From: Rickettsia typhi
Lineage (GTDB): Bacteria > Pseudomonadota > Alphaproteobacteria > Rickettsiales > UBA1997
DNA: 64,000 bases
Assembly: GCA_945875925.1 (NCBI GenBank)
Contig: CAMCME010000002.1
Location: 1,119-65,118 of the forward strand
Reading direction: 5' to 3'
Both the position numbers and the translations under genes were made by a program. Positions 12,215 to 60,837 of this stretch are shown in pieces. The stretch's first letter is position 1. Every line of letters starts with the position of its first letter. The notes beneath the pieces were generated by a model that saw only the letters and a list, made by a program, of their open reading frames with translations, did no database searches and was not told where the DNA came from.

Positions 12215-12718
12215 TTGATTCAAAATAACATGACCATTACAGATAATAAAATCCTAATCATAGACAATGTTTTTACGCAAGCCGAATGTTCAGCCTTAAT
12301 TGAATATTATAATATTAGCGGCCCCACCCATAAATGGCAGAATTTTCTGCCGATGACTATAAAACAAAATGATGAGTTTTTAAGCCCTAGAATTAAGAAA
12401 ATAGAAAATTTAGCAAAAAATAATTTTGATCAAAATATAGTTATCGATTGGTGTGAAATTGTTAGATGGCCTGTTGAAGCTTTCCAAAATTTGCATTTGG
12501 ACACTTCAAATAAAAACACCATTTTAACATCAATCACTTATTTGAATAATGAATATGATGGCGGCCAAACTTTTATATATGAAGATATTGAGGTCATTCC
12601 AAAAATAGGCAGAACGGTGATTTTTAACGGCCAATTTTACAAACATGGTGTGAGAAAAATTCTATCAGGATCAAGATATACTTTACCAATTTGGTATAAA
12701 ATGAATGATGCTGTTTAA
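12215..12718 (+). CDS. 2OG-Fe(II) dioxygenase, prolyl 4-hydroxylase-like (paralogue 1)
   Basis: HxD...H...R triad (HLDTS, YKHGV, SGSRYTLPIWY) and YLNNEYDGGQT motif. The likely start is the ATG at 12230 rather than the TTG at 12215. Confidence 0.7.
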   Translation: MIQNNMTITDNKILIIDNVFTQAECSALIEYYNISGPTHKWQNFLPMTIKQNDEFLSPRIKKIENLAKNNFDQNIVIDWCEIVRWPVEAFQNLHLDTSNKNTILTSITYLNNEYDGGQTFIYEDIEVIPKIGRTVIFNGQFYKHGVRKILSGSRYTLPIWYKMNDAV

Positions 12719-12850: not shown

Positions 12851-13372
12851 ATGTCCTCTACAAACAATAAAATCATAGTCCTAGATAATGTTTTTACCAA
12901 AGAAGAATGTTTATCAATGACCTCTTATTATGATAACAACATCTCATCTTCTCAATTCAGCAAAGAAACTCTAAATAACTTTATCGACATCAATCTAAAT
13001 GATAGTTTTTTATCTCCTAAAATTAGAAAAGTAGAAAACATCGCCAGAAATAATTATGATCCAAATATAGGAATTGATTGGGGCCATGTTGTAAATTGGC
13101 CAGTTGGAGCTTCTCATAATTTGCATCTTGATTTCAGAAAACAAGACACCGTTTTATCATCAATAACATATTTAAATGATGATTACACTGGCGGAGAAAC
13201 CTTCATAAAAGATGATTTACAGATTATTCCAAAGGTGGGCAGAACTATATTTTTTAATGGTCAGCAATATGTACATGGTGTGAAAAAAATCTTATCAGGA
13301 TCAAGATATTCTTTACCACTTTGGTATAAAATGTATGACCCTGCTTTAAACGGACCGAAAATTACGCGTTAG
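12851..13372 (+). CDS. 2OG-Fe(II) dioxygenase, prolyl 4-hydroxylase-like (paralogue 2)
   Basis: 173 aa. Collinear with the preceding ORF (HLDFR, YVHGV, SGSRYSLPLWY, YLNDDYTGGET). Tandem duplicate. Confidence 0.7.
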   Translation: MSSTNNKIIVLDNVFTKEECLSMTSYYDNNISSSQFSKETLNNFIDINLNDSFLSPKIRKVENIARNNYDPNIGIDWGHVVNWPVGASHNLHLDFRKQDTVLSSITYLNDDYTGGETFIKDDLQIIPKVGRTIFFNGQQYVHGVKKILSGSRYSLPLWYKMYDPALNGPKITR

Positions 13373-21612: not shown

Positions 21613-22818
21613 TTACTTCCAAATAATCAAACACTTAAAAAGCTTGCCCATTTGCTTTTTATCAATCAGGCGATCGATTTCGCTATTGATTTCGTCTTGT
21701 TGCTGAAGCGATTTATTTTCGAGCAGAATTTTTCGGCGCTCTTCAATTCCAAGACTCAAGAAAAAATCTGCTTGTGAAATTAGTGAAGAATTTAGGCTGT
21801 AATTTTTTGCAATATTTTCAAGCATTGGGAAATTGACTAGAGCTGTAATATCAGCCTCTCCTGGAGTTTTTAGACAATCGTAGAATTGATGATTTTTTAA
21901 GGCTTGAAGTGTGTTTACGAAGTCGTTTTTTATGTAACCGTAATCGATGATAAGAGCAATTCCGCCTTGTTTTTGTAAGGCCAAAGACAATTCCTGCATG
22001 AAGTTCGCTGCAGAAAAACTATGTTCAAAAACTGCGCCTTCCCCTACAACCTCGTCATCCTTGGATGCTTCAGCATCCGAGGATCTCATAAGTTCAGCCT
22101 CCGAGCTTGCTGAGTTTAAGATTCCTGAGATCCTCGGCACTGCATGCCAAGGATGACGAGTGTTGGAATTGGTAAGTAATTTCTCAATAATGCCATTTTT
22201 TATTGGATCAAATTTTTCAGTAAAAAATCCTAATTCTTCACCATTAATTCCAACGGTTTTTTCGCACCAGCCTTGAGAATTTTTAATAAATTGATTGATG
22301 GCAAAGCAGTCAAATAGCTCGTTGGCGATGAAATAAATTTCTCTTTCTGGAATATTTTTTTCTAGGGAATTTGTAAAATCTTGAAAATTGCTAAACCAAT
22401 TTATTTGAACACCAATTTCACTTAAATTTTCTTGCTGATTTTTTTGTAAAGCAGGGCTGATTTCAACAATATTAAAAGTGGTTTTTCTTAAAAAATTCTG
22501 TGCTTCTGGAATATTTTTTTCTGCTAATTTTTTTATAACTTGAAGCAAATCTTTAAATAAATTGCCGCGTCCAGCACCCATTTCAACCAGCGCTATTGGC
22601 CTCTTTGCGTGACTTGCCAAATTTATAAAATAAATGGCAATTAACTCGCCAAAAACTTGGCTAATTTCTGGAGCTGTTGTGAAGTCGCCCGCTTTTCCGA
22701 TGGGAATTTTTTTTTGGTAATAGCCATAAGTAGGATTGAACAAAGCCTCATTCATAAATTCGGCGATTGTGATTGGTCCGTTAATTTTGATGAGGGATTT
22801 GAGGCTGTTGATTAGCAT
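21613..22818 (-). CDS. SAM-dependent methyltransferase, MidA/NDUFAF7 (DUF185) family, carrying an in-frame palindromic-element insertion
   Basis: N-terminus GPITIAEFMNEALFNPTYGYY....IGKAGDFTTAPEISQVFGE and EMGAGRG. Residues TRHPWHAVPRISGILNSASSEAELMRSSDAEASKDDEV are encoded by repeat 22051-22160. Confidence 0.8.
   Translation of the reverse strand: MLINSLKSLIKINGPITIAEFMNEALFNPTYGYYQKKIPIGKAGDFTTAPEISQVFGELIAIYFINLASHAKRPIALVEMGAGRGNLFKDLLQVIKKLAEKNIPEAQNFLRKTTFNIVEISPALQKNQQENLSEIGVQINWFSNFQDFTNSLEKNIPEREIYFIANELFDCFAINQFIKNSQGWCEKTVGINGEELGFFTEKFDPIKNGIIEKLLTNSNTRHPWHAVPRISGILNSASSEAELMRSSDAEASKDDEVVGEGAVFEHSFSAANFMQELSLALQKQGGIALIIDYGYIKNDFVNTLQALKNHQFYDCLKTPGEADITALVNFPMLENIAKNYSLNSSLISQADFFLSLGIEERRKILLENKSLQQQDEINSEIDRLIDKKQMGKLFKCLIIWK
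22051..22160. repeat. Palindromic element, family C, inside the MidA-like CDS
   Basis: 14-bp perfect termini CTCGTCATCCTTGG/CCAAGGATGACGAG, inner CGAGGATCTCA/TGAGATCCTCG stem and two side mini-hairpins. The host ORF stays open across it. Confidence 0.9.
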
Positions 22819-22833
22819 GGGAAAATATATTAT

Positions 22834-22922
22834 CTGTCATTTCGAGAACAGCGAGAAATCTCGGGAAGCTTAAACTCCAAGTTTCAATCTCATGAGATTT
22901 CTCGCTGCGCTCGAAATGACAG
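22834..22922. repeat. Palindromic element, family A
   Basis: CTGTCATTTCGAG..GCGAGAAATCTC arms with an inverted partner. Intergenic between hisH and the MidA-like gene. Confidence 0.9.
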
Positions 22923-25090: not shown

Positions 25091-25212
25091 CTGCTGAAAA
25101 ATTCCCAAGCAAAGTAAGTCGGTTTTTTTGAAAAACTATCTTGAATTACATGGAAAGGGCCGCGCAAATTATCGGCCTTGTTGGTTTTTGCAAGGAATTT
25201 GTTGAACCAGCC

Positions 25213-25297
25213 TTGTCATCTCGAACTTTAGTGAGAGATCTAATGAGGCTCCTGCCGACAAACTCATGAGATCTCTAGCTTCGCTCGAGATGACAGG
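25213..25297. repeat. Palindromic element, family A (GTCATCTCGAAC variant)
   Basis: Inverted arms TTGTCATCTCGAAC..GTGAGAGATCT / AGATCTCT..CTCGAGATGACAGG, 18 nt downstream of the grpE stop. Confidence 0.85.
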
Positions 25298-25314
25298 TTG
25301 CATTTAGAATTTAA

Positions 25315-28030: not shown

Positions 28031-28115
28031 CCTGTCATCCCGAACGCATGCGAGGGATCTCTTGAGTATTAGCACCGAAACTCAAAAGATCCCTCACTAT
28101 GTTCGGGATGACAGG
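28031..28115. repeat. Palindromic element, family A (GTCATCCCGAAC variant), probable clpX terminator
   Basis: Inverted arms CCTGTCATCCCGAACGCATGCGAGGGATCT / partner. It lies 26 nt after the clpX stop and is followed by TTTTTTT on the plus strand. Confidence 0.85.
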
Positions 28116-28134
28116 TTTTTTTATGTCCAGATCT

Positions 28135-29694: not shown

Positions 29695-29721
29695 TATAAT
29701 TTGGGGTTATATACTTAAATT

Positions 29722-29829
29722 ATTTCTCGTTGTCATCCTCGCGAAAGCAGGGATCCAGTGCGATTTTTAAACATTTAGGAAACTAACTTCTGGATCCCAG
29801 CTTTCGCGAGGATGACAACGAGAAGAAAT
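29722..29829. repeat. Palindromic element, family B (GTCATCCTCGCGAAAGCAGGGATCCAG..)
   Basis: Long inverted arms including the flanks ATTTCTCGTTGTCATCC/GGATGACAACGAGAAGAAAT. It lies between the convergent hemE and nucleotidyltransferase genes. Sister copy at 60727-60837. Confidence 0.9.
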
Positions 29830-29841
29830 ATTATAACATTC

Positions 29842-30603
29842 CTAAAGATTTTCCTCGGTCATTTTCACCGCATCCACAGTTCCAATGTGAAAATATTTTC
29901 CTTTTAGTTCAATTCCATGAACGCGGTGTAATAGGCCATTTTCTCCAACCGCAGATTTGTAGAAATGTGACATTGAAAAACAATTTCCTGTCACTTCTTT
30001 TTTAGCGCGATTCAAAATTTTTGGATTGATAATTTGTAGCCCCACAAAAACATGGCTCATCGCTTGGTCAGAATATCTAAGTAAAGTTCCGCCGGCAAAA
30101 TTAAAATCTCCGCCACCGTGAATATTTCCGTCATAACCTAAATAATCTTCAGTCTTTTTTAGGCCTAAAAGAATATCACACTGCCCAGGGTTCCAAGCCT
30201 TAGAAATTAAATCAATGTCAGAATTTAATCCTTCATCTTGCCATAAAATATCGCCATTTATGGTAAGAAGTGGTTCGTCAAAATTGATTTTATCTTTAGC
30301 AAATAAAAGCCCGCCACCAGTTTCAACTTTTTCAACTTCGCGAGAAAAAATAATTTTCGGATTATTTAATTTTTTAATGTGAGCTTCCAGCTGATCAGCC
30401 AAATAAAATCCGTTAATAATAATTTTTTTAATATCAGGAATTTGATCTAATTTTTCGATTGAATAATCGATGATAGATTTGTTTTTGATTTTAATAAGTG
30501 GTTTGGGAGTTGTTTCAGTTAAAGGTCTCATGCGTTCTCCGCGACCTGCTGCAAAGATGAAACTTTGTGTAATTTTAGTCATTATTTTCACTGTTATTTT
30601 CAA
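29842..30603 (-). CDS. Sugar-phosphate nucleotidyltransferase (MurU/mannose-1-P guanylyltransferase-like)
   Basis: N-terminal FIFAAGRGERMRPLTETTPKPL nucleotide-binding motif. The likely start is the ATG at 30582 (MTKITQS), giving an 8-nt overlap with the upstream ABC gene. Confidence 0.7.
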   Translation of the reverse strand: MKITVKIMTKITQSFIFAAGRGERMRPLTETTPKPLIKIKNKSIIDYSIEKLDQIPDIKKIIINGFYLADQLEAHIKKLNNPKIIFSREVEKVETGGGLLFAKDKINFDEPLLTINGDILWQDEGLNSDIDLISKAWNPGQCDILLGLKKTEDYLGYDGNIHGGGDFNFAGGTLLRYSDQAMSHVFVGLQIINPKILNRAKKEVTGNCFSMSHFYKSAVGENGLLHRVHGIELKGKYFHIGTVDAVKMTEENL

Positions 30604-32464
30604 TTATAAATCCACCCACTTGTGAATCCCAAAGTTTTTTGTAAATGCCATTAAGATTAAGTAAATCTTGATGTGAACCATCTTCAATAATTTTACCAGC
30701 ATCAAAAACTAAAATGCGATCCATGCGTTTCAGTGTTGAAAGACGATGAGCCACAACCAGTGTGGTTTTATCTTTCATTAAATTTTCTAAACTTTCTTGA
30801 ATTAAATTTTCAGTGATTGAATCAAGTTGGCTGGTTGCTTCATCTAAAATTAAAATCGGTGCATTTTTTAAGAAAGCTCGCGCAATAGCAATTCTTTGGC
30901 GCTGTCCTCCAGATAATTTTACGCCGCGCTCGCCAACTAAAGAATCATAGCCTTCAGGTAAATTCTCGATAAATTCATGAGCGTGGGCTTTTTTAGAAGC
31001 TTCAATGACGGCTTTACTATTTTCGCCGTCATCCTTGGACGCATCTGCGTCCGAGGATCTTTTGAAGTTGAACTCATGAGATCCTCGATGCTGCGCATCA
31101 AGGATGACGAGGTTGGGGTTATTTATGATGACGGATGGGAAAATTCCATAAGAAATATTTTCCAAAAGGCTGCGATGAAAAAGCGACGGATCTTGCGGAA
31201 TCATGCCAATTTTCGCGCGCAGAGATTCTTGCGTAACTTTAGAAATATCTTGTCCGTCAATTAAAATTTTCCCCGAATCAATATCAAAAAATCGTAAAAT
31301 TAAATTTACAAAAGTGGTTTTCCCACTTCCAGAATGACCAACTAAACCAACCTTCTGGCCCGATTTTATTGTAAGAGATTTATTAGAAAAAAGAGGCGAT
31401 AAATTTTTGTAATAATTGAAACCAACATTTTCAAAAATGATTTCTCCGCGATCAACCACAAGAGTTTTAGCGCCTTCAATATCCTTTATTTGCAAAGGTT
31501 CATTGATCACAGATAAAGCCTGATTAATTGTTCCAACATCTTCCAAAAATCCACTCATTTCATTGGCCGACATCCACATTAAATGAATGATCCAATTATT
31601 AATTGTGAAGAGCATTAGAAAATCGCCAAGAGTGACAAGGCCTTCAGAATAAAGCCAAATTAAACCGACAATGCAGAAGATAAAATAAGCGGTAAAAGTG
31701 AAGGAGTGATAGATGTAGAATTTAATCAAAAAAGCGTTTCGGCGTTTAGAAAGTTTGGAATATTCATCTTGAAAAATATTAATTCTATCTCTTTCAAAGC
31801 GTGATCTGGCAAAGAGTCTAACATTTGCAATATTGCTTAAAACATCAACCAAATTACCCATAATTTTGGTTTGTTGATCGGCGGCGGCAACAGAAAGAGG
31901 ATCAGAAATTTTCGCCGCTTTTAGCGCCATTAAAATAAAAATTATGGCCCAAAAAATTAAGGCAAAAGCGAAGGCTTTGTGAATTGAGAAAAGTGCAACA
32001 AAGGCAATTACTAAACTTAAAAATACATTTAAGAAACTGTAAAGAATACGCCCAAGCATTGTTGGCGTGCAGCTCGCAAGATCACGAACTTTATTTGCTA
32101 AAGAACCAGAAAAATTATTTTGGAAAAAATTATGCGAATGTTGCATGGCATAATCCATTGATTCAGCAGTAATTTTTTTCTTCATTGCGGGCGTTAAATG
32201 CATCCAAGAAAAATCACAAAGTCGCCAAACTAAACCCGGCAAGATTGTAAAAATAATCAGCAATAGCGAAATTCCCCAAGTTTCAGAAACTGCATTTTGA
32301 TAAGGTGTGCTGGCTAATTTATCGAGCAGAAGTTTGGAAAGATAAGGCCAAAGAGAAAGATCAACGGCATTATAAAACACCACAAAAAGATGCAGGCCAA
32401 CATAGAATTTGAAAGGCCTGATCGAATTTATAAGAAATGAAAATGCGGTGTATTTTTTGGGCAT
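30575..32464 (-). CDS. ABC exporter, fused permease/ATPase (MsbA/multidrug type), carrying an in-frame palindromic-element insertion
   Basis: 629 aa with six TM segments, Walker A GHSGSGKTT, LSGGQRQRIAIARA and ILILDEATS. The peptide VILDAQHRGSHEFNFKRSSDADASKDD between ENISYG and the AHEFI..LP.GYD region is encoded by repeat 31027-31110. Confidence 0.9.
   Translation of the reverse strand: MPKKYTAFSFLINSIRPFKFYVGLHLFVVFYNAVDLSLWPYLSKLLLDKLASTPYQNAVSETWGISLLLIIFTILPGLVWRLCDFSWMHLTPAMKKKITAESMDYAMQHSHNFFQNNFSGSLANKVRDLASCTPTMLGRILYSFLNVFLSLVIAFVALFSIHKAFAFALIFWAIIFILMALKAAKISDPLSVAAADQQTKIMGNLVDVLSNIANVRLFARSRFERDRINIFQDEYSKLSKRRNAFLIKFYIYHSFTFTAYFIFCIVGLIWLYSEGLVTLGDFLMLFTINNWIIHLMWMSANEMSGFLEDVGTINQALSVINEPLQIKDIEGAKTLVVDRGEIIFENVGFNYYKNLSPLFSNKSLTIKSGQKVGLVGHSGSGKTTFVNLILRFFDIDSGKILIDGQDISKVTQESLRAKIGMIPQDPSLFHRSLLENISYGIFPSVIINNPNLVILDAQHRGSHEFNFKRSSDADASKDDGENSKAVIEASKKAHAHEFIENLPEGYDSLVGERGVKLSGGQRQRIAIARAFLKNAPILILDEATSQLDSITENLIQESLENLMKDKTTLVVAHRLSTLKRMDRILVFDAGKIIEDGSHQDLLNLNGIYKKLWDSQVGGFIIENNSENND
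31027..31110. repeat. Palindromic element, family C, inside the ABC exporter CDS
   Basis: 84 bp (28 codons) with termini CGTCATCCTTG/CAAGGATGACG and side hairpins GGACGC-ATCT-GCGTCC and GATGC-TGC-GCATC. I translated the whole element by hand and it reads through. Confidence 0.9.
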
Positions 32465-35835: not shown

Positions 35836-35948
35836 AGACCGCCGGTTGAGCGGAGTCGAAACCAGCGGAAGATTTCTGCTGCGGACTTTATAAAACACTA
35901 TACGGCAGGAACCTTCCGCTGGTTTCGACTCCTCTCAACCGGCGGTCT
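35836..35948. repeat. Palindromic element, family F
   Basis: ~36-bp arms AGACCGCCGGTTGAGCGGAGTCGAAACCAGCGGAAG and the inverted copy, starting 5 nt after the purB stop. Confidence 0.85.
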
Positions 35949-37266: not shown

Positions 37267-37306
37267 GGGATTTAAAAATAATTTAATAACAAATTTTATC
37301 CGGGCC

Positions 37307-37362
37307 GTCATGTCGACCGCAGTGAGACATCTCATGAGATGTCTCACTGCGTTCGACATGAC
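37307..37362. repeat. Palindromic element, family A, minimal form (arms only)
   Basis: 56-bp hairpin GTCATGTCGACCGCAGTGAGACATCTCAT|ATGAGATGTCTCACTGCGTTCGACATGAC with a single mismatch and no central spacer. Confidence 0.9.
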
Positions 37363-37373
37363 AAAAAGGAGAA

Positions 37374-38744
37374 TTACAAAATAAATTTCGATAAATCAGT
37401 TTTACCTGAAATTAAATCTCCCAAATGAGCATCAACATAAGATTCGTCAATCTTGATGGCCGCACCTTTTTTCATTTCGCTGGCTTCAAAACTTACATCT
37501 TCAAGAATTTTCTCAAGCAAAGTGTGCAGGCGGCGCGCGCCGATATTTTCAACTTCAGAATTCACTTTATAAGCAATTTTTGCAATTTCTTTAATGCCAG
37601 CTTCAGTGAAATCTAATGTTACATTTTCAACCCCAAGTAGCGCCACATATTGTTTAATTAAACTAGATTCTGGCTCGGTTAAAATGCGCACTAAATCATT
37701 TTCGGTAAGCGGTTTTAATTGCACGCGAATTGGGAATCGGCCTTGTAATTCAGGAAGTAAATCTGCAGGTTTGGCAATGTGAAATGCGCCAGAAGCGATG
37801 AATAAAATATGATCGGTTTTAATTAAACCATATTTAGTGCTGACTGTAGTTCCTTCAACCAAAGGTAGAAGATCGCGCTGCACTCCTTCACGGCTGACAT
37901 CGCCGCCTTTAGAGTGATTGCGTACACAAATTTTATCAATTTCATCAATAAAAACTATGCCGTCATTTTCGACAGATTTGATGGCGGTTTTGATAATTTT
38001 ATCTTCATCAATCATCTTTTCAGATTCTTCGTCGATCAAAGTTTTAAGTGCATCTTCGACAGTCATTTTAGCCTTTTTGGTCTTTTCACCATTCATGGCT
38101 TTGCCCAGCATTTCGCTAAGATTGATCATGCCAACTTGACCACCCGGAACTTCAAAAGAACTGGCGAAAGAATTGCCAGAATCTAGAACTTCAATTTCAA
38201 TTTCGCGCTCGTTCATCTCGCCATTTTCAAGCATTTGCGAGAATTTTTCTTTGGTGTCTTCGGAAGAACTTTCGCCAACTAAAATATTAAGAATCTTTTT
38301 CTTAGCATTTTTTTCTGCCTTGTCGCGAACTTCTTTTTTTGTAGCGCTTTTGAGAGTTTTAATCGCCACTTCTGCCAAATCGCGAATGATAGACTCTACA
38401 TCGCGTCCCACATAGCCAACTTCAGTAAATTTAGTTGCTTCAACTTTGATGAAAGGTGCATTAGCAAGCTTGGCTAAACGGCGCGCCACTTCGGTTTTAC
38501 CCACGCCAGTTGGGCCCACCATTAAAATATTTTTTGGCACAATTTCTTCGCGCAGCGGGCTATCAACCAGCTTTCTGCGATAGCGATTTCTTAAGGCAAT
38601 TGCCACGGCTTTTTTAGCCTCATCTTGGCCGATGATGTAGCGATTCAACTCTTCAACTATTTGTTTTGGAGTGAGATTTTGTCCTAAATTTTTGTCAGTA
38701 ATTTTGGCAGTATTTTTCACAGTCGTTTTTTTACTTTTTGTCAT
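37374..38744 (-). CDS. hslU: ATP-dependent protease ATPase subunit HslU
   Basis: 456 aa with [41 protein letters not shown] and [10 protein letters not shown]. Confidence 0.95.
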
Positions 38745-38890: not shown

Positions 38891-39520
38891 CTAACAATGC
38901 TGCAAAATTTCGACAATTGCATTTTGCAAATCATGAATACCAATTTTGTGAACGCTGCTGGTTCTAATAATTCCTGGATAAAGAGCTGCCCATTTTTTGG
39001 AAGCGGCTAAAATTTGATCTTCGGTTTTTTTAATTTCATGTTCTTTAAGTTTATCAACTTTGGTAAGCACAATTTGAAAACTGACGCCCAAAGTATTGAA
39101 CATATTGATGATGTCTTCGTCTGATTCTTTTAGGCCTTTTACAGGATCAATCAGCAAAAAAACTCTCTTCAAATTGGCGCGTTTGGCTAGATATTCAAAG
39201 CTAGTTTTTTGCCAGCTTTCTACATCTTTTTTACCAGCTTTGGCATAGCCATAACCCGGCATATCCACAAGCACCACGCTGTCGGTTAGCATTTTATCGC
39301 TGCTGAAGAAATTTAATTGGCGAGTGCGCCCTGGTGTGTTTGAAACAATCGCCACTTTGCGCCCCAGAAGCGCATTGATGATGCTAGATTTTCCAACATT
39401 AGAAGCGCCGATAAAAGAAATTTCAGGGTTGCGATGATCAGGAAATTGTTTTGGATGAGCTGCACCAAGAAGGAAATCCCATTCTTTGGAGAATAATTTT
39501 TTTGGGTCGATTTTTTTCAT
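38891..39520 (-). CDS. engB: Ribosome biogenesis GTP-binding protein YihA/EngB
   Basis: 209 aa with G1 GASNVGKSS, the TPGRT.Q.NFF pattern, DMPGYGYA and TKVDK. Confidence 0.9.
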   Translation of the reverse strand: MKKIDPKKLFSKEWDFLLGAAHPKQFPDHRNPEISFIGASNVGKSSIINALLGRKVAIVSNTPGRTRQLNFFSSDKMLTDSVVLVDMPGYGYAKAGKKDVESWQKTSFEYLAKRANLKRVFLLIDPVKGLKESDEDIINMFNTLGVSFQIVLTKVDKLKEHEIKKTEDQILAASKKWAALYPGIIRTSSVHKIGIHDLQNAIVEILQHC

Positions 39521-39570
39521 TTTTGTTTTTAGTTATTTATTTTTTGCAAACATCAAATTTTGTAAATGTT

Positions 39571-39676
39571 CGTCATCCTTGGGCGCTTTAGCGTCCGAAG
39601 ATCTCAGGAGTTCGTCTGATAATTAAAATGGAGTTCAAACTCATGAGATCCTCGGCCACAGGGGCCAAGGATGACG
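39571..39676. repeat. Palindromic element, family C (intergenic)
   Basis: CGTCATCCTTGG..CCAAGGATGACG termini, side hairpins GGGCGC-TTTA-GCGTCC and GGCC-ACAG-GGCC, and the CTCATGAGATCCTCGG core. Confidence 0.9.
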
Positions 39677-39691
39677 AGAATGGCTTAATGA

Positions 39692-40570
39692 CTAACGGCG
39701 TTTTTCTTCCATAAATTTCACAATTGCTTCAGCCACATCAACGCCAGTCGCTGCTTCAATTCCTTCTAGCCCTGGTGAAGAATTTATTTCTAGAATTTTT
39801 GGGCCGTTATCTGATCTAACCATGTCGACTCCCGCCACTTCTAGGCCGATGATTCTTGCGGCGTTGATCGCCATTTCTCTTTCTTCATCAGTAATGTCAG
39901 CAGCGGTGGCAGTGGCGCCTAAGTGAATATTAGCGCGGAATTCTCCTTCTTCGGCTTGGCGCTGCATTGAGGCCACAACTTTATCGCCAATTACAAAACA
40001 TCTAATGTCTTGGCCGCGAGATTCTTTGATGTAATGCTGAACCAAAATATCGGCTTTAAGACTGCGGAAAGCGTTGATCATGCTTTCGGCGGTTTTGGAA
40101 TTTTCGGCTAGAACCACGCCAACGCCTTTAGTTCCTTCAAGCAATTTAACCACCAATGGCGAGCCACCAACCAGCCTGATCAAATCTTTAGTTTCGTAAG
40201 ATGAATTGGCAAAACTGGTGGTTGGAATGTTTAAATTATGTTTCGCCAAAATTTGCAAAGTGTGAAATTTGTCGCGTGATTTTGTAATTGAATAAGAATC
40301 GTTTAAGCAAGGTGTATTCATAGTTTCGAACTGTCTCACCACGGTGGTTCCGTAAAAGGTCATGGCGGGCTTAATACGCGGCACAACATAGTCGATATTT
40401 TCTAACTTGATGCCTTCGCCGTGAAAAATCTCTGAACCGTTAGAAGCGACTTTAATGTAGCAAGAGCCGATATTAATAAATTCAGCATCGTGGCCGCGCT
40501 TCTGCGCTGCTTCGATGATTCTTTGATTGGAGTATAAATTTGGATTTGAAGCCAAAACTATGATTTTCAT
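39692..40570 (-). CDS. rimK: Ribosomal protein S6 L-glutamate ligase RimK (ATP-grasp)
   Basis: 292 aa with LVVKLLEGT.G.GV.LAE, DIRCFVIGDKVVA.M.R and the NSSPGLEGIE C-terminal motif. Confidence 0.9.
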   Translation of the reverse strand: MKIIVLASNPNLYSNQRIIEAAQKRGHDAEFINIGSCYIKVASNGSEIFHGEGIKLENIDYVVPRIKPAMTFYGTTVVRQFETMNTPCLNDSYSITKSRDKFHTLQILAKHNLNIPTTSFANSSYETKDLIRLVGGSPLVVKLLEGTKGVGVVLAENSKTAESMINAFRSLKADILVQHYIKESRGQDIRCFVIGDKVVASMQRQAEEGEFRANIHLGATATAADITDEEREMAINAARIIGLEVAGVDMVRSDNGPKILEINSSPGLEGIEAATGVDVAEAIVKFMEEKRR

Positions 40571-42252: not shown

Positions 42253-42366
42253 AAATCTTTTCAAAAGATTTTGTGAATATTTCCCCAAATTAGTTTTTGT
42301 TTTGCCTCGATTTTTTGTGCTGGGTGTTTTTTCCGTTATTTCTTCTTTGCTGTTATTTCTCCTCTG

Positions 42367-42449
42367 CTGTCATTTCGAACGCAGTGAGAAATCTCATTAG
42401 GCTTTACGGATGAACTTATGAGATTTCTCACTGCGTTCGAAATGACAGG
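42367..42449. repeat. Palindromic element, family A
   Basis: CTGTCATTTCGAACGCAGTGAGAAATCTCAT arms. The arm sequence is identical to copy 1728-1830 from TCATTTCGAAC inward. Confidence 0.9.
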
Positions 42450-42459
42450 TTGTAAAAAA

Positions 42460-42513
42460 AGCCAAAAAAAAGCTAAAAAAAAGAGGGGTGAACTTTTTTA
42501 AGTTCACCCCTCT
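42460..42513 (-). terminator. Rho-independent terminator of the DEAD-box helicase gene
   Basis: Perfect 12-bp stem AGAGGGGTGAAC/GTTCACCCCTCT (42482-42513), followed on the minus strand by a long U-rich tract. It lies 22 nt after the stop. Confidence 0.85.
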
Positions 42514-45013: not shown

Positions 45014-46678
45014 TTATTGATGTAGATTTAGATAGTGCTTTGTTGCTTCAGTATCCAAAAATTTAGGATAAGTTTTTACTAGCCTCTTTCCATTCTCATC
45101 GAAGCTCATTGCTTCCATTAAACCGCTTTCAGCAACATCAATATTTTTTTCTCTTATTCTTAAATAGTTCTTTTGAGTCCATCCTAAAATACATTTATGA
45201 AGAGCTTTAACTGCTCTATAATCAGGCATAATTGTTTTACTTTCCATTTGAAGACCCATGACATTTAGACATAGCCCTAAAATTTTTATAGATAGGTAAT
45301 TAGGGAATTCTTCCATCCTTTTTATTTCTGAATAAATACGGCGACATAGTCGGGAATGAATTATTTTTTGGGCATGATTTCTTTGATCAACAAAGCTAAA
45401 ATAATTATTCCATACTGTATTATGCTGCACTTGCCAGCTAGTATCAAAAGGAGCTTTAACGGAAGCAACATTGGACAAGACATCAAACATCGATTCGACT
45501 AGAACATCATAGTAGTCATTAAAGTGACCACTAGATTTTAATTTTCTCCTAATTGCTGATCCGTCTTTTTCTTTTAACAGCTTTACTAGATCTTTAATAA
45601 AATCTGAAACTACCTCAAGTCTTCGATAAGCATCAGTATTATAAAAATCGGAAACATTATTGATTTTATAAATATCAGTACATCTTCCAGTAATGAATCC
45701 TAGCGTTCTGTTAAAAGTGGTTTGATGAGTATCGATAGTGCTATTCTCTAAGCAGTCTTTTACAAAAATCAGAAAAGATTTTGTGTAAACTTTTAACTGC
45801 GATGCGTCTAAGCTCGACAGTGTTTTGTAGTCTATGTCAAAGGGAGTTTGATGAGATAAAGAGCTGACTAATTTACAGTTTCCAAAAACTGCTTTACTGA
45901 ATGGTTTTATATAGCCAATTAGACCTGAATTATATCCCTCATCTTCATGATACAAAATTGAGTCTTTATCAAGCAATGCTTCAGCAGCAATGTTGGTTGC
46001 AAAAGTACCAATCGGCAGTTGATATTTTCTATTTCGAGTCATTTCCTCAAAGAATGCTATGGCTGTAATCGGAGTGTTAGATACAATGTATTTGCAGAGC
46101 TTTCTATTTCCGATTAACAGAAGTATTTCGTATGCACATTGACCAATATCAAATTTATTTTTTGTGTTACGATTTTTTTCATCCTTCTTTTGCCAGCTTG
46201 GAATAACAATATTTGAATATTTAACAATATTTGGGGCTGATCGATTTAACTCGTTGGCGATAATGGGTAAATCTACTGCTGATCCTTTTACAATCTCCCG
46301 ATAAAGCTCTTGAATAAATCTGGTATAATTTTTCTTAGAAAAAACCGGAGGTATTATGAATGCATACCGAATCCAGCTAGATAATAAGATAACAAAAAAA
46401 GTAGCGAAGCTTGATTGCCAATAAGCCTGAACACTTAAAAAGCTTGGCATCATCCATCCTTTTTCAAACCAAACGTCACTTAATAAAGTTCCAACCGCAA
46501 TTAACAGGGTCAGTAAAAAGGTTTCCGTTAGCAAAGATATCTTTTCGAACGATGTTGGAGCTATAGAGATACGAAATTTGTAGCGCGTATCAGTGATTGT
46601 ATATAGCACCATTAAAAGCGAAAATGCTGCGATAAATTCAGCAAAACCAAAAATCGGATTTTTTATTGGGATTGGCAT
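45014..46678 (-). CDS. Orphan membrane-anchored protein (about 4 N-terminal TM helices plus ~420-aa soluble helical region), no recognisable family
   Basis: Long uninterrupted ORF (554-569 aa depending on the start; ATG at 46678 preferred). It has hydrophobic N-terminal segments and I recognise no catalytic motif. Confidence 0.55.
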   Translation of the reverse strand: MPIPIKNPIFGFAEFIAAFSLLMVLYTITDTRYKFRISIAPTSFEKISLLTETFLLTLLIAVGTLLSDVWFEKGWMMPSFLSVQAYWQSSFATFFVILLSSWIRYAFIIPPVFSKKNYTRFIQELYREIVKGSAVDLPIIANELNRSAPNIVKYSNIVIPSWQKKDEKNRNTKNKFDIGQCAYEILLLIGNRKLCKYIVSNTPITAIAFFEEMTRNRKYQLPIGTFATNIAAEALLDKDSILYHEDEGYNSGLIGYIKPFSKAVFGNCKLVSSLSHQTPFDIDYKTLSSLDASQLKVYTKSFLIFVKDCLENSTIDTHQTTFNRTLGFITGRCTDIYKINNVSDFYNTDAYRRLEVVSDFIKDLVKLLKEKDGSAIRRKLKSSGHFNDYYDVLVESMFDVLSNVASVKAPFDTSWQVQHNTVWNNYFSFVDQRNHAQKIIHSRLCRRIYSEIKRMEEFPNYLSIKILGLCLNVMGLQMESKTIMPDYRAVKALHKCILGWTQKNYLRIREKNIDVAESGLMEAMSFDENGKRLVKTYPKFLDTEATKHYLNLHQ

Positions 46679-46701
46679 AACATGGCATATGCTCAAAACT
46701 A

Positions 46702-47155
46702 TTAATTTACATGCTGGTTCCATACTAGATACTTGTTTAGTCCCCTTGAATAATGGACAGGGTTTTGGTGAAAAACTTTCGAGTTTTTCTTAAACTCTTG
46801 GATAAGAAATTCAAAAGGTGTTTTAAAGGCAAGTGATTTTAGTTTTTTCGCAAAATTATAGGCAAGCATGAATTGATTCAGATGCTTTTCCAAATGCTCT
46901 AAACTGTCATAGTGATAGGTTTTTGTAGTGGCGTCTTTAATCGTTCGATTGGTTCGCTCTACTTGTCCATCTACTTGTCCATTGGTCCAAGGGTGTCTGA
47001 ACTTTGTGAGCTTATGTTTAATCGCATGTTTTTTGCAGAGTAAATCAAATGGGTGAAACGATTTGGGGCGCAAGTGTTTGACTAGCAAAGCGTAAGTGAA
47101 CTGAGCTCCGTTTTCCGTTAAAATTCTGTGAATCTTGTAAGGACAAAGCTCAATT
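46702..47155 (-). mobile_element. Remnant of an IS481/IS3-type transposase (DDE 'rve' integrase core, C-terminal part only)
   Basis: PYKIHRILTENGAQFT...HPWTNGQV(DGQV)ERTNRTIK...YNFAKKLKSLAFKTP. There is no N-terminal HTH part and no terminal inverted repeats were seen. The 5' junction position is approximate. Confidence 0.7.
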
Positions 47156-47304
47156 ACTTCCTGCAAAAACTCAATCACCTTTTCATCTTGATTAATCAAA
47201 GCAAAAACTTCCGCATCATCTTCGCGCCATTGTCGCAGAATTAATCTTTTAGTTTCGATGTTTTTTTGATTATTTGCATGAAACTCCAACTGCCTGCGAA
47301 ACAT
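47156..47304 (-). pseudogene. N-terminal fragment of a GNAT (RimJ/RimL-like) acetyltransferase fused in frame to the IS remnant
   Basis: TKRLILRQWREDDAEVFALINQDEKVIEFL resembles GNAT N-termini. The rest of the acetyltransferase is absent. It overlaps the pyrD 3' end. Confidence 0.45.
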
Positions 47305-48340
47305 TCTTAAACCCATCTTTTTTCACCAGCTCATTCAAGTCTTTTTTAATTCTTTCAACCAGTCCAAATCCTTCATAAATAAAGGCAGAATAAATTTGCA
47401 CCAAAGATGCGCCACTTTTAATTTTTTCGTAAGCATCCGCAGCGCTCGCAATTCCACCCACACCAATCAAAGGAATTTTGCCGCCAGTTAATTTGTAAAA
47501 ATTCTGCAACACTTCATTAGATTTTTTAAGTAAAGGCGCGCCACTTAATCCGCCAGTTTCAGACGCATATTTACTTTTCAAATTCAGGTCGCGCGAAATT
47601 GTAGTATTGCTGATAATCACGCCATCAATTTGGTTTTTTAAAACAGTTGCAGCAATTTGCTCTTGCTCGGCTGTTGTCAAATCTGGCGCTATTTTAAGTA
47701 ATATCGGAACTTCACGATTATATAATTTTTTAAGCTGAGATTTTTTCTTAATAATCTCGCCCAAAAATAAATCCAATTGATCTTCTTTTTGTAAATCACG
47801 CAGATTCTTGGTATTTGGCGAAGAGATATTAATGGTGATGTAAGATGCTGGAGAATAAAACCTGTCCATCAGCTTCAAATAGTCGCTCACAGCATCTTCT
47901 GTATCTTTATTTTTGCCGATATTGGCGCCTAAAATTAGATTATCATTTTTTTCAGAAGCAGTTTTAAAAAGATTTTCAGCAAAATTTATTTCGCCTAAAT
48001 TGTTAAAACCCAAACGATTAATAATCGCTTTATCTTCTTCAAGGCGAAAGATTCTGGGTTTGTTATTTCCGCTCTGCGCTAAAGGCGTCACAGTTCCACA
48101 TTCCACAAATCCAAAACCAAATTTAGACAATTTTCTGACAACTTGGGCATTCTTATCAAAACCAGCGGCCATGCCAATAGGGTTTTTAAAATCAAGGTTC
48201 AGCAACTTCTGATTGAGATTTTCATATTCCTTAACTTGTGGAAAACATGGATTAAATTTTAGAAATTTAATGGCTAAATTATGAGCAGTTTCTGGTTCAA
48301 TTTTGAAAATCAGTGGACGAATAATTTGATAAAAATTCAT
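47270..48340 (-). CDS. pyrD: Dihydroorotate dehydrogenase (quinone), class 2
   Basis: 356 aa with N-terminal MNFYQIIRPLIFK..PE.AH, the GFNN.G pattern, NISSPNT and a C-terminal GAS.VQ.YSA..Y.G. Confidence 0.92.
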   Translation of the reverse strand: MNFYQIIRPLIFKIEPETAHNLAIKFLKFNPCFPQVKEYENLNQKLLNLDFKNPIGMAAGFDKNAQVVRKLSKFGFGFVECGTVTPLAQSGNNKPRIFRLEEDKAIINRLGFNNLGEINFAENLFKTASEKNDNLILGANIGKNKDTEDAVSDYLKLMDRFYSPASYITINISSPNTKNLRDLQKEDQLDLFLGEIIKKKSQLKKLYNREVPILLKIAPDLTTAEQEQIAATVLKNQIDGVIISNTTISRDLNLKSKYASETGGLSGAPLLKKSNEVLQNFYKLTGGKIPLIGVGGIASAADAYEKIKSGASLVQIYSAFIYEGFGLVERIKKDLNELVKKDGFKNVSQAVGVSCK

Positions 48341-49053
48341 TAATTGGTTTCCGGTTTTTTTCTTGATAAAAGCAGTAAAGTTGTGGACACAGCCACTATA
48401 ATTAAAATCACATCTGAAGAGCGTTTAAGCAAAAAATTATCAGATAATTTATCTTTCAAGCGCGTCCATTTTTTTTCATCAACTTCAAAAGTTTGAGATT
48501 TATTTAGCCACACATCTTGGTCTTCTAGTTTTTTGCCTAAATAATATTTTTCAATTTCGCGATGCACAGGATGATTGGTTGAAGTCATAGGATTTTCTGA
48601 CAAAATGTCCTGAGTTTCAACTTTTTGATCATCAACCAAATTAGCAATTTCCGCGACATTTCTGGCCACTAAAAATAAGGCCACAAAAACTATTAAAACA
48701 ATTGCTGCGATGGAAATTGTGCCGAAAAAGATCTCTATCAAAGACTGATTTTCTGTTCTTTTAGGAGATTTTACAAAAATTGTGCTGTGAGTTGAAATCA
48801 AAAATAAAACCACCATCGAATAAGCCACCAAACCCAAAACAATTTCTTTAAAACTATTATAGCTGGAAATAGAAATGCTTAAAAAAAGCACTAAAATTAA
48901 ATGAGAAATTATCAGGCTGATGATAGTGGAAGTGCGAGTTTTGACTTTGGTGATGATCAAAAAATTGATTACCACAAAAACCAATATCACTAATAATTTG
49001 GGGTCAAAAAGCATTGATATATTAGGTTGGTTTTGGATCACAACTGCTGTCAT
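48340..49053 (-). CDS. Polytopic membrane protein of unknown function
   Basis: 237 aa with about five hydrophobic helices. Its TAA overlaps the pyrD ATG by 1 nt (TAATG). The annotated ATG lies inside repeat 49047-49132, and an alternative start MLFDPK lies 13 codons in. Confidence 0.5.
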   Translation of the reverse strand: MTAVVIQNQPNISMLFDPKLLVILVFVVINFLIITKVKTRTSTIISLIISHLILVLFLSISISSYNSFKEIVLGLVAYSMVVLFLISTHSTIFVKSPKRTENQSLIEIFFGTISIAAIVLIVFVALFLVARNVAEIANLVDDQKVETQDILSENPMTSTNHPVHREIEKYYLGKKLEDQDVWLNKSQTFEVDEKKWTRLKDKLSDNFLLKRSSDVILIIVAVSTTLLLLSRKKPETN

Positions 49054-49132
49054 CTCGAACGCTAGTGAGAGATCTCATGAGGCTTTAACTCGATAAACTC
49101 ATGAGATCTCTCACTAGAGTTCGAGATGACAA
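49047..49132. repeat. Palindromic element, family A (GTCATCTCGAAC variant)
   Basis: CTGTCATCTCGAACGCTAGTGAGAGATCTCATGAG arms with an inverted partner, between the dapD stop and the membrane-protein start. Confidence 0.9.
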
Positions 49133-49152: not shown

Positions 49153-49992
49153 TTAATCCCTCAACAATTCATTAATCGAAGTTTTAGAACGAGTTTTTTC
49201 ATCAACTCTTTTCACAATAATTGCTGCATAAAGTGACAAATTTTTTGCACCTTTTTCTGAACTCACATTGCCAGGAACCACAACTGAGTAGGCTGGAACG
49301 CGGCCATAGAAAACTTCACCAGTTTCGCGATCAATAATTTTTGTTGAAGCGCCAATATAAACGCCCATCGAAATTACCGAACCTTCTTCCACAATCACGC
49401 CTTCAGCAATTTCACTGCGCGCGCCAATAAAGCAATTATCTTCAATGATCACAGGGTTTGCTTGCAAAGGTTCTAGAACCCCGCCAATTCCAGCGCCACC
49501 AGAAATGTGACAATTTTTTCCAATTTGTGCGCAAGAACCAACTGTCGCCCAAGTATCAATCATCGAACCTTCATCAACATATGCGCCAAGATTTACGAAT
49601 GATGGCAGCAAAACTACATTTTTAGCAATGAATGCTGAATGACGCACAACCGCGCCAGCAACTGCTCTGAATCCTGCTTTTTTGAAATCTTCATCGGTCC
49701 AATTAGCAAATTTCAAAGGCACTTTATCATAATTCACTAGTGAATTTCCATGAGCTGCTTGTTGTTTGCTTAAGAAATTATCATTCAATCTGAAAGACAA
49801 TAAAATCGCTTTTTTGATCCATTGATTTACTTGCCAAACGCCATTTATTTTTTCACAAATTCTAATTTTGCCGGCATCAAGCAAGTTTAGAGTTTCAACA
49901 ACTGCATCACGAATTTCGCCGCCAGTGTTAAGGTTGATTTCGGCTCTATTTTCAAAAGCTTTTTCGATGATTTGTGAAAGATTATTTGTCAT
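49153..49992 (-). CDS. dapD: 2,3,4,5-tetrahydropyridine-2,6-dicarboxylate N-succinyltransferase
   Basis: 279 aa with left-handed beta-helix hexapeptide repeats ([40 protein letters not shown]) and a typical N-terminal helical domain. Confidence 0.92.
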
Positions 49993-50030
49993 AAATTTTG
50001 ATTATTTTTTATTTTCTGTTTTGTAATTTT

Positions 50031-50128
50031 CGTCATCCTTGAGCCTGAAAGGCTCGAGGATCTCATGACTCTTAGTCTCTGAAGCTAAAACTCATGAGAT
50101 CCTCGGCCGCGTGCGGCCAAGGATGACG
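50031..50128. repeat. Palindromic element, family C (intergenic)
   Basis: CGTCATCCTTG..CCAAGGATGACG termini with side hairpins GAGCC-TGAAA-GGCTC and GGCCGC-GT-GCGGCC. Confidence 0.9.
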
Positions 50129-50153
50129 AATCTTTCTTTTGAATTAATTTCTC

Positions 50154-50963
50154 TTAAAACCCAACCGTTAAATCGCCATTTTCAATTTTACTTTCAAAGA
50201 AAAATTTAGTTGTCGATTTTACTGTTTCTTGATTCAAAACCACTTCCAAACTTTCTCCTAAGGTTTGTTCTTGAATGTAAGTTGCAAACTTTTTTGCCAC
50301 TTCCAAAGTTTGGCTATTGGTCGAAAAAATCTTCAAATTAATTCGATCAGAAACATTTAAATCTGCCTCTTTACGATTTTGTTGAATTGCGCGCACGATG
50401 TCTCGCGCCACACCTTCTTCTTCTAATTCTTTAGTCACTTCAATATCAAGTTGAATCAAGCAATCATTGCTTGGAAGTGCCATGATAATATATTTTTTAT
50501 CATCAGTATTTTTGGTGGTAAGTTTAATTTCAAACTCATCATCCACCAAATTAACGCCAGCAATGGCAATTTCTTTATCAGAAATTTTCACCCATTCACC
50601 TTTCTTAATCGCTTCCATAATTTCTTTAACTTTCGAGCTATATTTAGCGCCAATTTTTTTGAAATTTATCTGCAATTTTAATTCAGCCAAATCGCTAATT
50701 TCTTCTTTAATTTCAACGCTTTTTACATTCACTTCTTCAGCGATAATGTCTTTGAAATTAAGGATGCGCGAAGCATTTTTGCCAATCACAATCAATTGGT
50801 TTAAAGGCAATCTCACGCGAAGATTTTTATTATCGCGAATACTCAAAGTTGTGCTGCAAATGCTGCGCACCAAATCCATTTGCATGACCAAATCTTTTTC
50901 ATCATTCAAAAAAGAAACATCAGGAAAATCTTGTAAATGGACGGAAATTTTACGGTCTATCAT
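50154..50963 (-). pseudogene. ileS: 5'-truncated isoleucyl-tRNA synthetase (type 2) - C-terminal ~270 aa only
   Basis: SVHLQDFPD, NLRVRLPLNQL, EEVNVKSVEI......L.INFKKIGAKY and EGVARDIVRAIQQNRKEADLNVSDRI match the C-terminal region of ~1050-1100-aa type-2 IleRS. The purM stop lies 9 nt upstream, so the catalytic body is missing. Confidence 0.7.
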
Positions 50964-54848: not shown

Positions 54849-54975
54849 CTGTCATTTCTCAATTTGTCATTTCGAGCGTAGCGAGAAATCTTATGAAATT
54901 GAAGCTCGGAATTTTAGCCTCATGAGATTTCTCGCTACGCTCGAAATGACAAAGTGGAGAAAGCAAATGACAAAG
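54849..54975. repeat. Palindromic element, family A, with duplicated outer ends
   Basis: Core TGTCATTTCGAGCGTAGCGAGAAATC..GATTTCTCGCTACGCTCGAAATGACA (54865-54951) is flanked by extra TGTCATTTCTC / AAATGACAAAG half-sites. Confidence 0.85.
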
Positions 54976-58908: not shown

Positions 58909-59140
58909 GTCATTAACTCCGAATCGGGAATCTAGAAGTTAAGATATTATGGCACTGTCGTAAATCAACTTTTTCGTCGAATTTTTCGCAATTCAAAATT
59001 TTTTGGAACGCACGTACATCTAGGTAAGCTTACCTTCCAAAAAATTTTGAATCACAAAAACTTCTTAGAAAAACTTGATTTGCGACAGTGCCATTATTCG
59101 TTGCAAAATCGCACTAGATTTACTCTTTCGTGGGAATGGA
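58909..59140. repeat. Degenerate, reverse-oriented family-B element with a 146-bp palindrome nested in its centre
   Basis: Outer arms GTCATTAACTCCGAATCGGGAATCTAGAAG / CGCACTAGATTTACTCTTTCGTGGGAATGG align to the family-B arms with roughly 30% divergence. The inner 60-bp arms 58949-59008 and 59035-59094 show 8 mismatches over 60 positions around a GGTAAGCTTACC-containing loop. Confidence 0.7.
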
Positions 59141-60726: not shown

Positions 60727-60837
60727 CTCTTTCTCGATGTCATCCCCGCGAAAGCGGGGATCCAGTGCGATTTTTAAACAATTTGGAAACTCACTTCTGG
60801 ATCCCCGCTTTCGCGGGGATGACATCGAGAAAGAAAG
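60727..60837. repeat. Palindromic element, family B
   Basis: CTCTTTCTCGATGTCATCCCCGCGAAAGCGGGGATCCAGTGCGA..TCTGGATCCCCGCTTTCGCGGGGATGACATCGAGAAAGAAAG, between the divergent pstS and bamA. Confidence 0.92.

Follow-up and report, generated by a model that had tools for sequence, protein, structure and literature searches.

A CGTC-tagged palindromic repeat probably inserted in frame in the midA gene of an uncultured freshwater alphaproteobacterium

How does a gene for a conserved enzyme come to carry a long DNA palindrome inside its reading frame and still appear intact? The question is raised by a stretch of 64,000 nucleotides (the window) from contig CAMCME010000002.1, deposited under the name Rickettsia typhi, in which the gene for a MidA/NDUFAF7-type S-adenosylmethionine-dependent methyltransferase holds a palindromic element of a repeat family that we call family C. 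Coding palindromes were first presented as a Rickettsia peculiarity. An earlier note on this DNA had described an element of about 110 bp with perfect 14-bp termini, lying within a 401-residue open reading frame (ORF) without interrupting it, and had likened it to Rickettsia palindromic elements (RPEs). Our analysis indicates that the segment is probably a nonautonomous dimer of CGTC-tagged repetitive extragenic palindromes (REPs) that was inserted in frame into a variable loop of MidA, and that it would be translated and tolerated but not needed.

The palindrome within midA

The features of the locus are as follows.

21613 to 22818, minus strand: midA, MidA/NDUFAF7-type methyltransferase, 401 residues, intact ORF
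22051 to 22160: family-C palindromic element, 110 bp, perfect 14-bp terminal inverted repeats, coding for MidA residues 220-256 on the minus strand
22053 to 22087, plus strand: monomer 1, with CGTC tag (22053-22056), loop TTCA and tail CTC
22085 to 22129: spacer between the monomers, 45 nt, ends imperfectly complementary (family consensus CTCATGAG...CTCATGAG)
22127 to 22158, minus strand: monomer 2, with its own CGTC tag, then ATCCTTGGCA, a TGCAG loop, TGCCGAGGAT and CTC
Insert/flank junctions in the protein: ...LLTNSNTR/HPW... and ...KDDEVVGEG... (peptides NSNTRHPWHAVPR and ASKDDEVVGEGAVFEHSFSAANFMQELSLALQK)

The element proved to be exactly 110 bp long, and its termini are as perfect as first described: the left end CTCGTCATCCTTGG (22051-22064, plus strand) has its exact reverse complement CCAAGGATGACGAG at 22147-22160. 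Folded as single-stranded RNA, the element reaches -64 kcal/mol (z -7.4 versus dinucleotide shuffles), and as single-stranded DNA it reaches -33.8 kcal/mol (z -7.0 versus shuffles). Each half also forms a hairpin of its own. The 12-bp stem of monomer 1, ATCCTTGGATGC/GCATCCGAGGAT, pairs 22057-22068 with 22073-22084 through one T·G wobble and closes on a 4-nt loop, whereas monomer 2 has 10 bp and a 5-nt loop. The DNA hairpins are predicted at -10.0 kcal/mol for monomer 1 (z -5.0; complementary strand -7.9, z -2.8) and at -8.2 kcal/mol for monomer 2 (z -4.0; complementary strand -6.2, z -2.5). Because the tip of monomer 2 is unlike that of monomer 1, the MidA element is a heterodimer.

The ORF is indeed free of stop codons throughout. 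Two nucleotides of codon T220 and all of codons 221-256 come from the element, and the peptide that had been quoted as the insert is therefore correct except that V257 belongs to the flank and codon 220 stems only partly from the repeat. Read on the minus strand, the spacer of this copy has TCAGGA where the family consensus has TCATGA, which would place an in-frame stop there. The TCAGGA variant is also frequent among intergenic family-C copies.

Pfam model PF02636 (Methyltransf_28, formerly DUF185) matches residues 59-342 as a single stretch that includes the insert (E 1.9e-48), in agreement with the statement that the flanks are conserved DUF185 sequence. In an alignment of 120 homologues, the invariant family columns are conserved in the window protein without exception (38/38). 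The gene order rplT-DUF2628-hisH-midA-bioB is kept in relatives, which identifies their MidA proteins as orthologues; beyond the strain cluster the nearest MidA is metagenomic and 64% identical. Over the stretch N217-V263, the window protein has 45 residues versus a median of 8 (mode 6, 51 sequences). Loop length at this site runs from 5 to 52 residues across the homologues, is short in 118 of the 120, and exceeds that of the window protein only in P0003.

Two of the checks proposed in the earlier note, alignment with orthologues that lack the insert and mapping of the insert on a structure, support its account: the segment is missing from those 118 homologues, and it falls in the sole low-confidence loop of our MidA model and in the gap between the blocks aligned with 1zkd. 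Specifically, query residues 3-207 and 261-397 align with 1zkd residues 8-197 and 213-350, leaving about 38 extra residues, and the insert site also lies between aligned blocks of 5ztz. An AlphaFold2 model built from the 120-sequence alignment has a mean predicted local distance difference test score (pLDDT) of 88.7 and a predicted template modeling (TM) score of 0.87. The one segment with a pLDDT under 50, residues 222-254, falls between helix 205-217 and strand 263-266. A Foldseek search with the model returned the MidA structures 5zu0, 5ztz and 1zkd (TM 0.73-0.78; 5zu0_A, E 2.5e-32, TM 0.78). As modeled, the insertion site is thus compatible with the MidA fold and would lie in a surface loop. 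Judged from these sequence comparisons, the segment appears to be an insertion and not native MidA sequence.

Other palindromes seem to have entered the same loop elsewhere. P0003 (406 residues) differs from its close relative P0004 (380 residues) by an in-frame 78-bp palindrome, ATGGACCCCGC...GCGGGGTCCAT, which amounts to 26 codons in this MidA loop. Here the filled and empty sites can be compared directly (L106:777-1997 versus L107:1501-2643), and the right end of the palindrome (TCCAT) comes from target sequence. A family similar to this 78-bp palindrome is present in the window at 994-1101. The loop peptide of P0103, ...IPTCVGMT..., looks like a CGTC-type monomer when judged by the peptide alone. 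One MidA loop has therefore been colonized independently by two, possibly three, different palindromes, and the occurrence of unrelated palindromes there in other lineages suggests that the site is permissive and not selected for a function.

Nine strain variants of the window protein (96-100% identity) all carry the insert in an intact ORF. Three shorter strain entries differ in their start-codon calls, and one of these also has a 4-residue deletion well upstream of the insert. Substitutions inside the insert among these variants are W223G, A225E and A250V. A codon comparison of the window strain with the strain of JGI contig Ga0114975_10000057 (L112), both of which have the insert, gave 28 synonymous and 14 nonsynonymous differences (pN/pS 0.13). 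Consequently, midA is under purifying selection with the insert in place. An untranslated pseudogene had been named beforehand as an outcome that would speak against the in-frame account, and neither the nine intact variants nor this ratio is pseudogene-like. The insert itself shows one synonymous and two nonsynonymous differences in 114 nt, and one of the L112 differences unpairs a base of the terminal repeat without compensation.

Metatranscriptome data contributed one contig, from a single RNA run and an L112-type strain, in which the hisH end runs on into the first 143 nt of midA, suggesting co-transcription. The run also yielded a piece of another family-C copy. In the window strain, hisH and midA are separated by a 139-bp spacer containing a family-A palindrome, TGTCATTTCGAG...CTCGAAATGACA, at 22834-22922. 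The L112 strain has no such spacer, its hisH stop overlapping the midA ATG (TAATG), and the spacer with its family-A palindrome is therefore a recent gain.

Family C in the window and in other genomes

Besides the copy in midA, the window holds three further copies.

31027 to 31109: copy 2, 83 bp from tag to tag, lying in frame within the part of an ABC exporter ORF (30575 to 32464, minus strand) that encodes the nucleotide-binding domain
39570 to 39677: copy 3, intergenic, between engB (38891 to 39520) and rimK (39692 to 40570)
50029 to 50130: copy 4, intergenic, between dapD (49153 to 49992) and a DUF5915 ORF (50154 to 50963)

The core sequence CGTCATCCTTGG occurs at eight sites in the window when up to two mismatches are allowed, versus 2.15 expected, and none of 100 shuffles reaches eight. 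These sites form four inverted pairs, 59-82 nt apart (22053-22158, 31027-31109, 39571-39676 and 50031-50128). All four copies are dimers with their tags pointing outward, and all eight monomers begin with CGTC. The ABC exporter offers a clean case of insertion, in which query residues 440 and 479 align with residues 1109 and 1111 of 8woi to define 38 inserted residues. This insertion is longer than the 83-bp element; the additional codons include CCGTCATCAT (31110-31140, minus-strand IFPSVIINNPN), which looks like a remnant of another CGTC-tagged unit.

By scanning GTDB with one genome per species and the pattern CGTCATCCTTGR-N55-85-YCAAGGATGACG, we recovered at least 101 loci and at least 116 unique copies. 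Among the matches listed, nearly all copies come from some 15 low-GC metagenome-assembled genomes (MAGs; 33-44% G+C) of lake origin (Mendota, Loclat and Erken, for example), labeled Rickettsiales, Alphaproteobacteria or with evidently wrong species names. The names "Rickettsia typhi" and "Rhizobium sp." on several of these records (CAMDMO01 and CAMDRL01, with loci L003, L010, L017 and others; CAYUHG01, CAMCMF01 and CAZDLU01, with L014, L020 and others) are almost certainly wrong, given a G+C content of 33-40% and lake samples. The window sequence itself comes from lake and river metagenomes, with lake sequencing runs that cover 89-100% of the locus, and is represented by MAG GCA_947440615.1. 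Its host does not belong to the genus Rickettsia and is an uncultured freshwater alphaproteobacterium. The internal layout of family C is missing from matches on GC-rich Mesorhizobium, Agrobacterium and Bradyrhizobium contigs and on a small number of GC-rich MAG contigs, which were treated as other CGTC-type repeats with a common terminus; only one GC-rich match, in Mesorhizobium, lies in a long open frame, and that frame is unsupported by Pfam.

Several collections were searched for relatives of the element. Whether gathering or permissive thresholds were applied, Rfam yielded two tRNAs for the window and only a noise match on the element, which is therefore not a known RNA family. NCBIfam models gave no match to five element-encoded peptides at E up to 10, a search for which the presence of RPE models in that collection was unchecked. 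Neither the IMG/VR viral contigs (0 matches) nor the PLSDB plasmids, which should include Rickettsia plasmids, gave a family-C match, and nothing points to a phage or plasmid vector. In the literature searched, no paper ties RPE-type elements to metagenome-assembled Rickettsiales.

Each half of a family-C element reads 5'-CGTC, ATCCTTG, a variable hairpin, CGAGGAT and CTC, and the two halves are inverted around a spacer with complementary ends. Note that, outside the window, the tag and the 5' side of the stem are imposed by the search pattern, whereas the 3' side is free. Among the matches listed, 50 distinct monomers of equal length have their 11-bp stem paired in 97.5% of cells, versus 30-45% in slid controls, and two-sided changes occupy 66 cells versus 20.9 ± 3.2 in shuffles (0/500). 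Over the family the stem consists of 7 conserved bp and 4-6 variable bp, and the tail in this set is CTC or, in a few cases, CTT. All 50 monomers have A-U at columns 5-29 and U-A at columns 6-28, 48 have a T·G wobble at stem position 6, and each of the four tip pairs occurs as 3-5 pair types. The wobble accounts for the better folding of the CGTC-first strand in both MidA monomers (-10.0 and -8.2 versus -7.9 and -6.2 kcal/mol).

The tips are hypervariable, with 144 distinct forms in the 201 monomers among the matches listed, and their loops are mainly GAA, GCA, AAA and GTA. They nevertheless pair: over all monomers, the Watson-Crick run at the tip averages 4.0 consecutive pairs versus 0.4 in shuffles. 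Only 5 of the 89 elements among these matches have the same tip in both halves, and within one MAG a limited number of tip types (for example AAGCC, AATTGC and GATGC) recur in varying combinations. The flanks of 116 copies among the matches listed gave no sign of target-site duplication: direct repeats of 3 nt or more occur once (0.86 expected), and those of 4-7 nt not at all. Next to the tag on its 5' side, most copies have C followed by T or C, and the 5' flank is poor in G.

In-frame residence is not confined to midA. Long stop-free frames, with at least 50 codons on both sides, surround 15 of the 116 copies among the matches listed, and at least 10 in-frame copies, including both in window genes, lie in housekeeping genes recognizable by Pfam. 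Hosts in related MAGs are arginyl-tRNA synthetase (ArgRS; two MAGs), isoleucyl-tRNA synthetase (IleRS), leucyl-tRNA synthetase (LeuRS), a two-domain ABC ATPase, MacB, UvrC, an M24 aminopeptidase and a MiaB-like radical-SAM enzyme; copies also lie in three short ORFs and a Mesorhizobium ORF, all without Pfam support. Entry occurs in each of the three frames (RHPW, xVIL and SSSL), whereas the exits are limited to KDD[EG] or PRMT because the third exit frame holds a TGA in GGATGACG. A copy has on average only 1.4 stop-free frames of six among the matches listed, and the copies in genes are therefore a filtered subset.

Two of these host ORFs hold additional embedded sequences. The IleRS ORF of L049 (JBIKKP010000002.1) has, in addition to its family-C element, a complete DUF559 domain (Vsr-like endonuclease) at residues 490-598 (E 7e-40), with low-complexity, repeat-like sequence on either side. 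The M24 aminopeptidase ORF of L081 (CAIYMZ010000106.1) combines a family-C insert with three tandem copies of VTSLEMHSHLVTPSSAK, which resemble another TGTC-type repeat (TCGAAATGACA-like) clustered in frame.

A 204-residue ORF at 46702-47316 (minus strand) with an rve_3 integrase core (E 8e-8) is the window's sole transposase-like sequence. It adjoins a 569-residue ORF without a Pfam hit at 45014-46723 (minus strand), and the two may be a decayed insertion sequence (IS) or an integrated element. The rve_3 fragment has no visible link to the family-C repeat. Elsewhere in the window, tandem paralogous ORFs of the 2OG-Fe(II) oxygenase type lie at 12215-12718 and 12851-13372, with 71-72% nucleotide identity over 300 nt, and one of them is annotated PF13640 on a MAG contig.

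Origin and fate of the insert

We propose that the repeat consists of a 45-nt spacer enclosed by two CGTC-tagged REP hairpins in inverted orientation, a REPIN-like architecture (REP doublets forming hairpins) with RPE-like behavior. In an ancestor of the strain cluster, a copy would have landed in the MidA surface loop between helix 205-217 and strand 263-266, and would have survived there because it was free of stops in the frame of the gene and its net length preserved the downstream frame. The insert would now be transcribed and translated as a loop of about 37 residues, hydrophilic and disordered, which the methyltransferase tolerates without requiring it; both its translation and its near-neutrality are what we infer. 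The notion of RPE-like in-frame insertion agrees with each of the checks made, namely the repeat, the homologues, the loop, selection and the other in-frame copies.

Five points weigh against this account. The exact inserted unit is undefined, because 110 nt is not divisible by three and the net insertion must be about a base longer or shorter than the palindrome. An empty-site allele of the MidA family-C insertion was not found, the nearest insert-free orthologue being 64-69% identical; a scan of JGI metagenomes for such an allele returned 0 matches but is a weak test, its control having recovered one filled allele only. RNA or peptide coverage of the insert is nil, as the sole RNA contig ends before it. 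Three differences in 114 nt are too few for the insert to be called neutral or constrained. Finally, no mobilizing enzyme was identified among the genes of the 64-kb window, which encode no Y1/HUH or REP-associated tyrosine transposase (RAYT).

Could the segment instead be a native, lineage-specific loop of MidA, its likeness to the repeat being coincidental or the repeat being derived from the gene? The natural span of homologue loops and the lack of an empty-site allele at high nucleotide identity would fit such an origin. However, the DNA in question is a full-length family member, sharing termini, internal boxes and hairpin architecture with the other copies, of which two are intergenic in the window and more than 100 reside in other genomes. 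With 118 of 120 homologues lacking the segment, this origin is very improbable and close to refuted. A repeat-induced chimera deserves mention because short repeats can confuse metagenome assemblers, but the identical protein and locus were recovered on independent ENA, Logan, NCBI (MAG) and JGI contigs from separate assemblies and samples, and public contigs of diverged strains span the whole midA gene with the element inside. The probability of a chimera is therefore negligible, and the MidA copy is not an assembly artifact.

More weight attaches to the fate of the insert. The gene might be a pseudogene, or the segment might be kept out of the protein by removal from the mRNA or polypeptide or by a hairpin that blocks translation. 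The missing transcript and peptide data over the insert leave room for this, and an mRNA hairpin of -64 kcal/mol could conceivably impede ribosomes or attract RNase III. Nevertheless, we judge it decidedly unlikely: each of the nine strain variants retains an intact ORF, the pN/pS ratio reported above is low, excision of the 110-nt palindrome and nothing else would put the gene out of frame, features of inteins or introns are lacking, as is an Rfam match, and the family is in frame in the essential ArgRS, IleRS and LeuRS of relatives, which cannot all be dead. Alternatively, the insert may have been co-opted, either for a new MidA interaction or regulation or as an mRNA stability or processing signal within the operon. 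Its retention in all sampled strains is consistent with a role, as is its low synonymous divergence (1 in 26.5 sites versus 27 in 218 outside), and REPs elsewhere act as RNA elements (PMC3733652). These synonymous counts are too small for significance, however, and the uncompensated terminal-repeat mismatch in L112 points to decay; together with the predicted disorder of the loop and the unrelated palindromes that share the site in other lineages, which suggest permissiveness, they make co-option clearly improbable as well.

How the family might spread is a separate matter. Recognition of a single folded strand is what the fixed tag and stem base with a covarying tip point to, as do the asymmetry between strands and the missing target duplication. 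An enzyme acting in trans would read the 5'-CGTC tag and the stem base, and the tip by its shape only. The absence of target duplication would fit a mechanism of the IS200/IS605 or RAYT type, and folded-strand recognition in trans would resemble the RAYT/REPIN and IS200/IS605 systems. Template-switch correction of quasi-palindromes could likewise yield perfectly paired but diverse tips, with no selection involved. A bolder proposal, that family C is a fifth and still active type of CGTC REP whose design of fixed CGTC tag, stem base with the conserved T·G wobble and freely covarying tip with GNA-like triloops would reflect folded-strand recognition by a trans-acting enzyme, seems unlikely; a weaker version holds that some in-frame copies, such as that in the MidA loop, may have been co-opted. 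If the bolder proposal were true, the abundance of family C in a dozen or more lake MAGs and its absence from others could reveal the CGTC-mobilizing enzyme through presence and absence, and an enzyme found for CGTC repeats would extend to RPE-4 and RPE-6.

Our preferred reading, a tolerated in-frame REP dimer, implies that an RPE-like process operates in uncultured freshwater alphaproteobacteria through a distinct repeat family present in at least 10 housekeeping genes. The copies provide a natural record of where conserved enzymes tolerate insertions, and their carriers form a population of related genomes in which to seek the mechanism of CGTC mobilization. In practice, such inserts make proteins longer, break up domain matches and can mislead MAG annotation.

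Relation to known repeat systems

The closest counterpart is the REP superfamily of Di Nocera, De Gregorio and Rocco (2013; PMC3733652), whose members carry a CGTC (or TGTC/CCTC) tag and a stem opening with A-T and then T-A. CGTC REPs occur mainly in alphaproteobacteria and mainly as inverted dimers, often heterodimers with complementary spacer ends, are sometimes intragenic and have no dedicated transposase (PMC3733652). Family C shares the 5'-CGTC tag, the start of the stem, the dimers with outward tags, the heterodimers, the intragenic units and, within the window, the lack of a linked transposase. Its spacer ends follow CTCATGAG/CTCATGAG, like the complementary ends of the 20-100-bp spacers in CGTC REPs. 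The encoded peptides run in parallel as well. Intragenic CGTC units are reported to encode VIPAKAGI...IPAFAGMT, SFPRKRES...DSRFRGND and RHPGGGRDD (PMC3733652), so that RHPG..., VIPA... and SFPRK... at the entry and ...GND and ...GMT at the exit correspond to RHPW..., xVIL... and SSSL... and to ...KDD[EG] and ...PRMT in family C. The differences lie in the stem (a composite of 11-13 bp versus 8-9 bp), the loop (mostly GNA-type triloops versus 4-5 nt), the tail (CTC versus mostly CCA) and the conserved T·G wobble at stem position 6. By description, family C thus fits an inverted dimer of the CGTC-tagged REP superfamily, and it may belong to one of CGTC-1 to CGTC-4 or form a fifth family.

The window also contains palindromes closer to the published types. 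Two copies that are 91% identical (29719-29829 and 60728-60834) are dimers of TGTC ATCCCCGC GAAA GCGGGGAT CCAG and match published CGTC-1 (8-bp stem, 4-nt loop, CCA tail), the class equated with RPE-6. About seven more TGTC-tagged palindromes lie at 1725-1831, 25212-25299, 28033-28117, 37294-37374, 42354-42461, 49048-49131 and 54860-54956, with covarying stems (ATTTC/GAAAT, ATCTC/GAGAT, ATCCC/GGGAT and ATGTC/GACAT). The TGTC palindromes are all intergenic or at gene ends, and two overlap annotated N-termini (37305-37362 and 49048-49131). Long intergenic palindromes of other types occupy 35836-35948 and 58946-59097 (AGACCGCCGGTTGAGCGGAGTCGAAACC... and an inverted repeat with 63-nt arms).

Bacterial MITEs (miniature transposable elements with inverted repeats) such as ERIC, Correia/NEMIS and BOX have target-site duplications and derive from an IS with the same termini. 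Family C resembles them in its shortness, its terminal inverted repeats and its occasional in-frame fusions. It differs in that its copies have no target-site duplication and in that no parent IS with the same termini was seen in the window, the other loci not having been searched for one.

REPINs are mobilized by RAYT transposases (Bertels and Rainey 2011, PMC3116915), and alphaproteobacteria generally have few or no RAYTs (PMC6006769). Unlike the REPIN-RAYT system, family C has the tag CGTC instead of GTAG, and the 64-kb window has no RAYT. It is like REPINs in combining two inverted REP hairpins and a spacer into one long fold, in being nonautonomous, in the lack of target duplication and in forming sequence populations within a genome.

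The behavior in genes most recalls RPE-1 to RPE-10 (Ogata et al. 2000, 2002, summarized in PMC10969869 and PMC3733652). RPE-6 and RPE-4 correspond to CGTC-1 and CGTC-4 of R. conorii (PMC3733652). Like RPEs, family-C elements are dispersed palindromes of roughly 100-150 bp with no transposase of their own known, and a sizeable minority of copies lie in frame, at fold-compatible sites, in unrelated housekeeping genes (tRNA synthetases, Uvr proteins and transporters). Unlike RPEs, they reside in a freshwater alphaproteobacterium, their hairpin is a composite with a hypervariable tip, and their sequence is without an NCBIfam match, the RPEs having been compared only through the peptide table of PMC3733652. 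The phenomenon of coding palindromes is thus already known, and what is new is the composite hairpin, with its conserved, T·G-containing base and its hypervariable, covarying tip, together with the host lineage.

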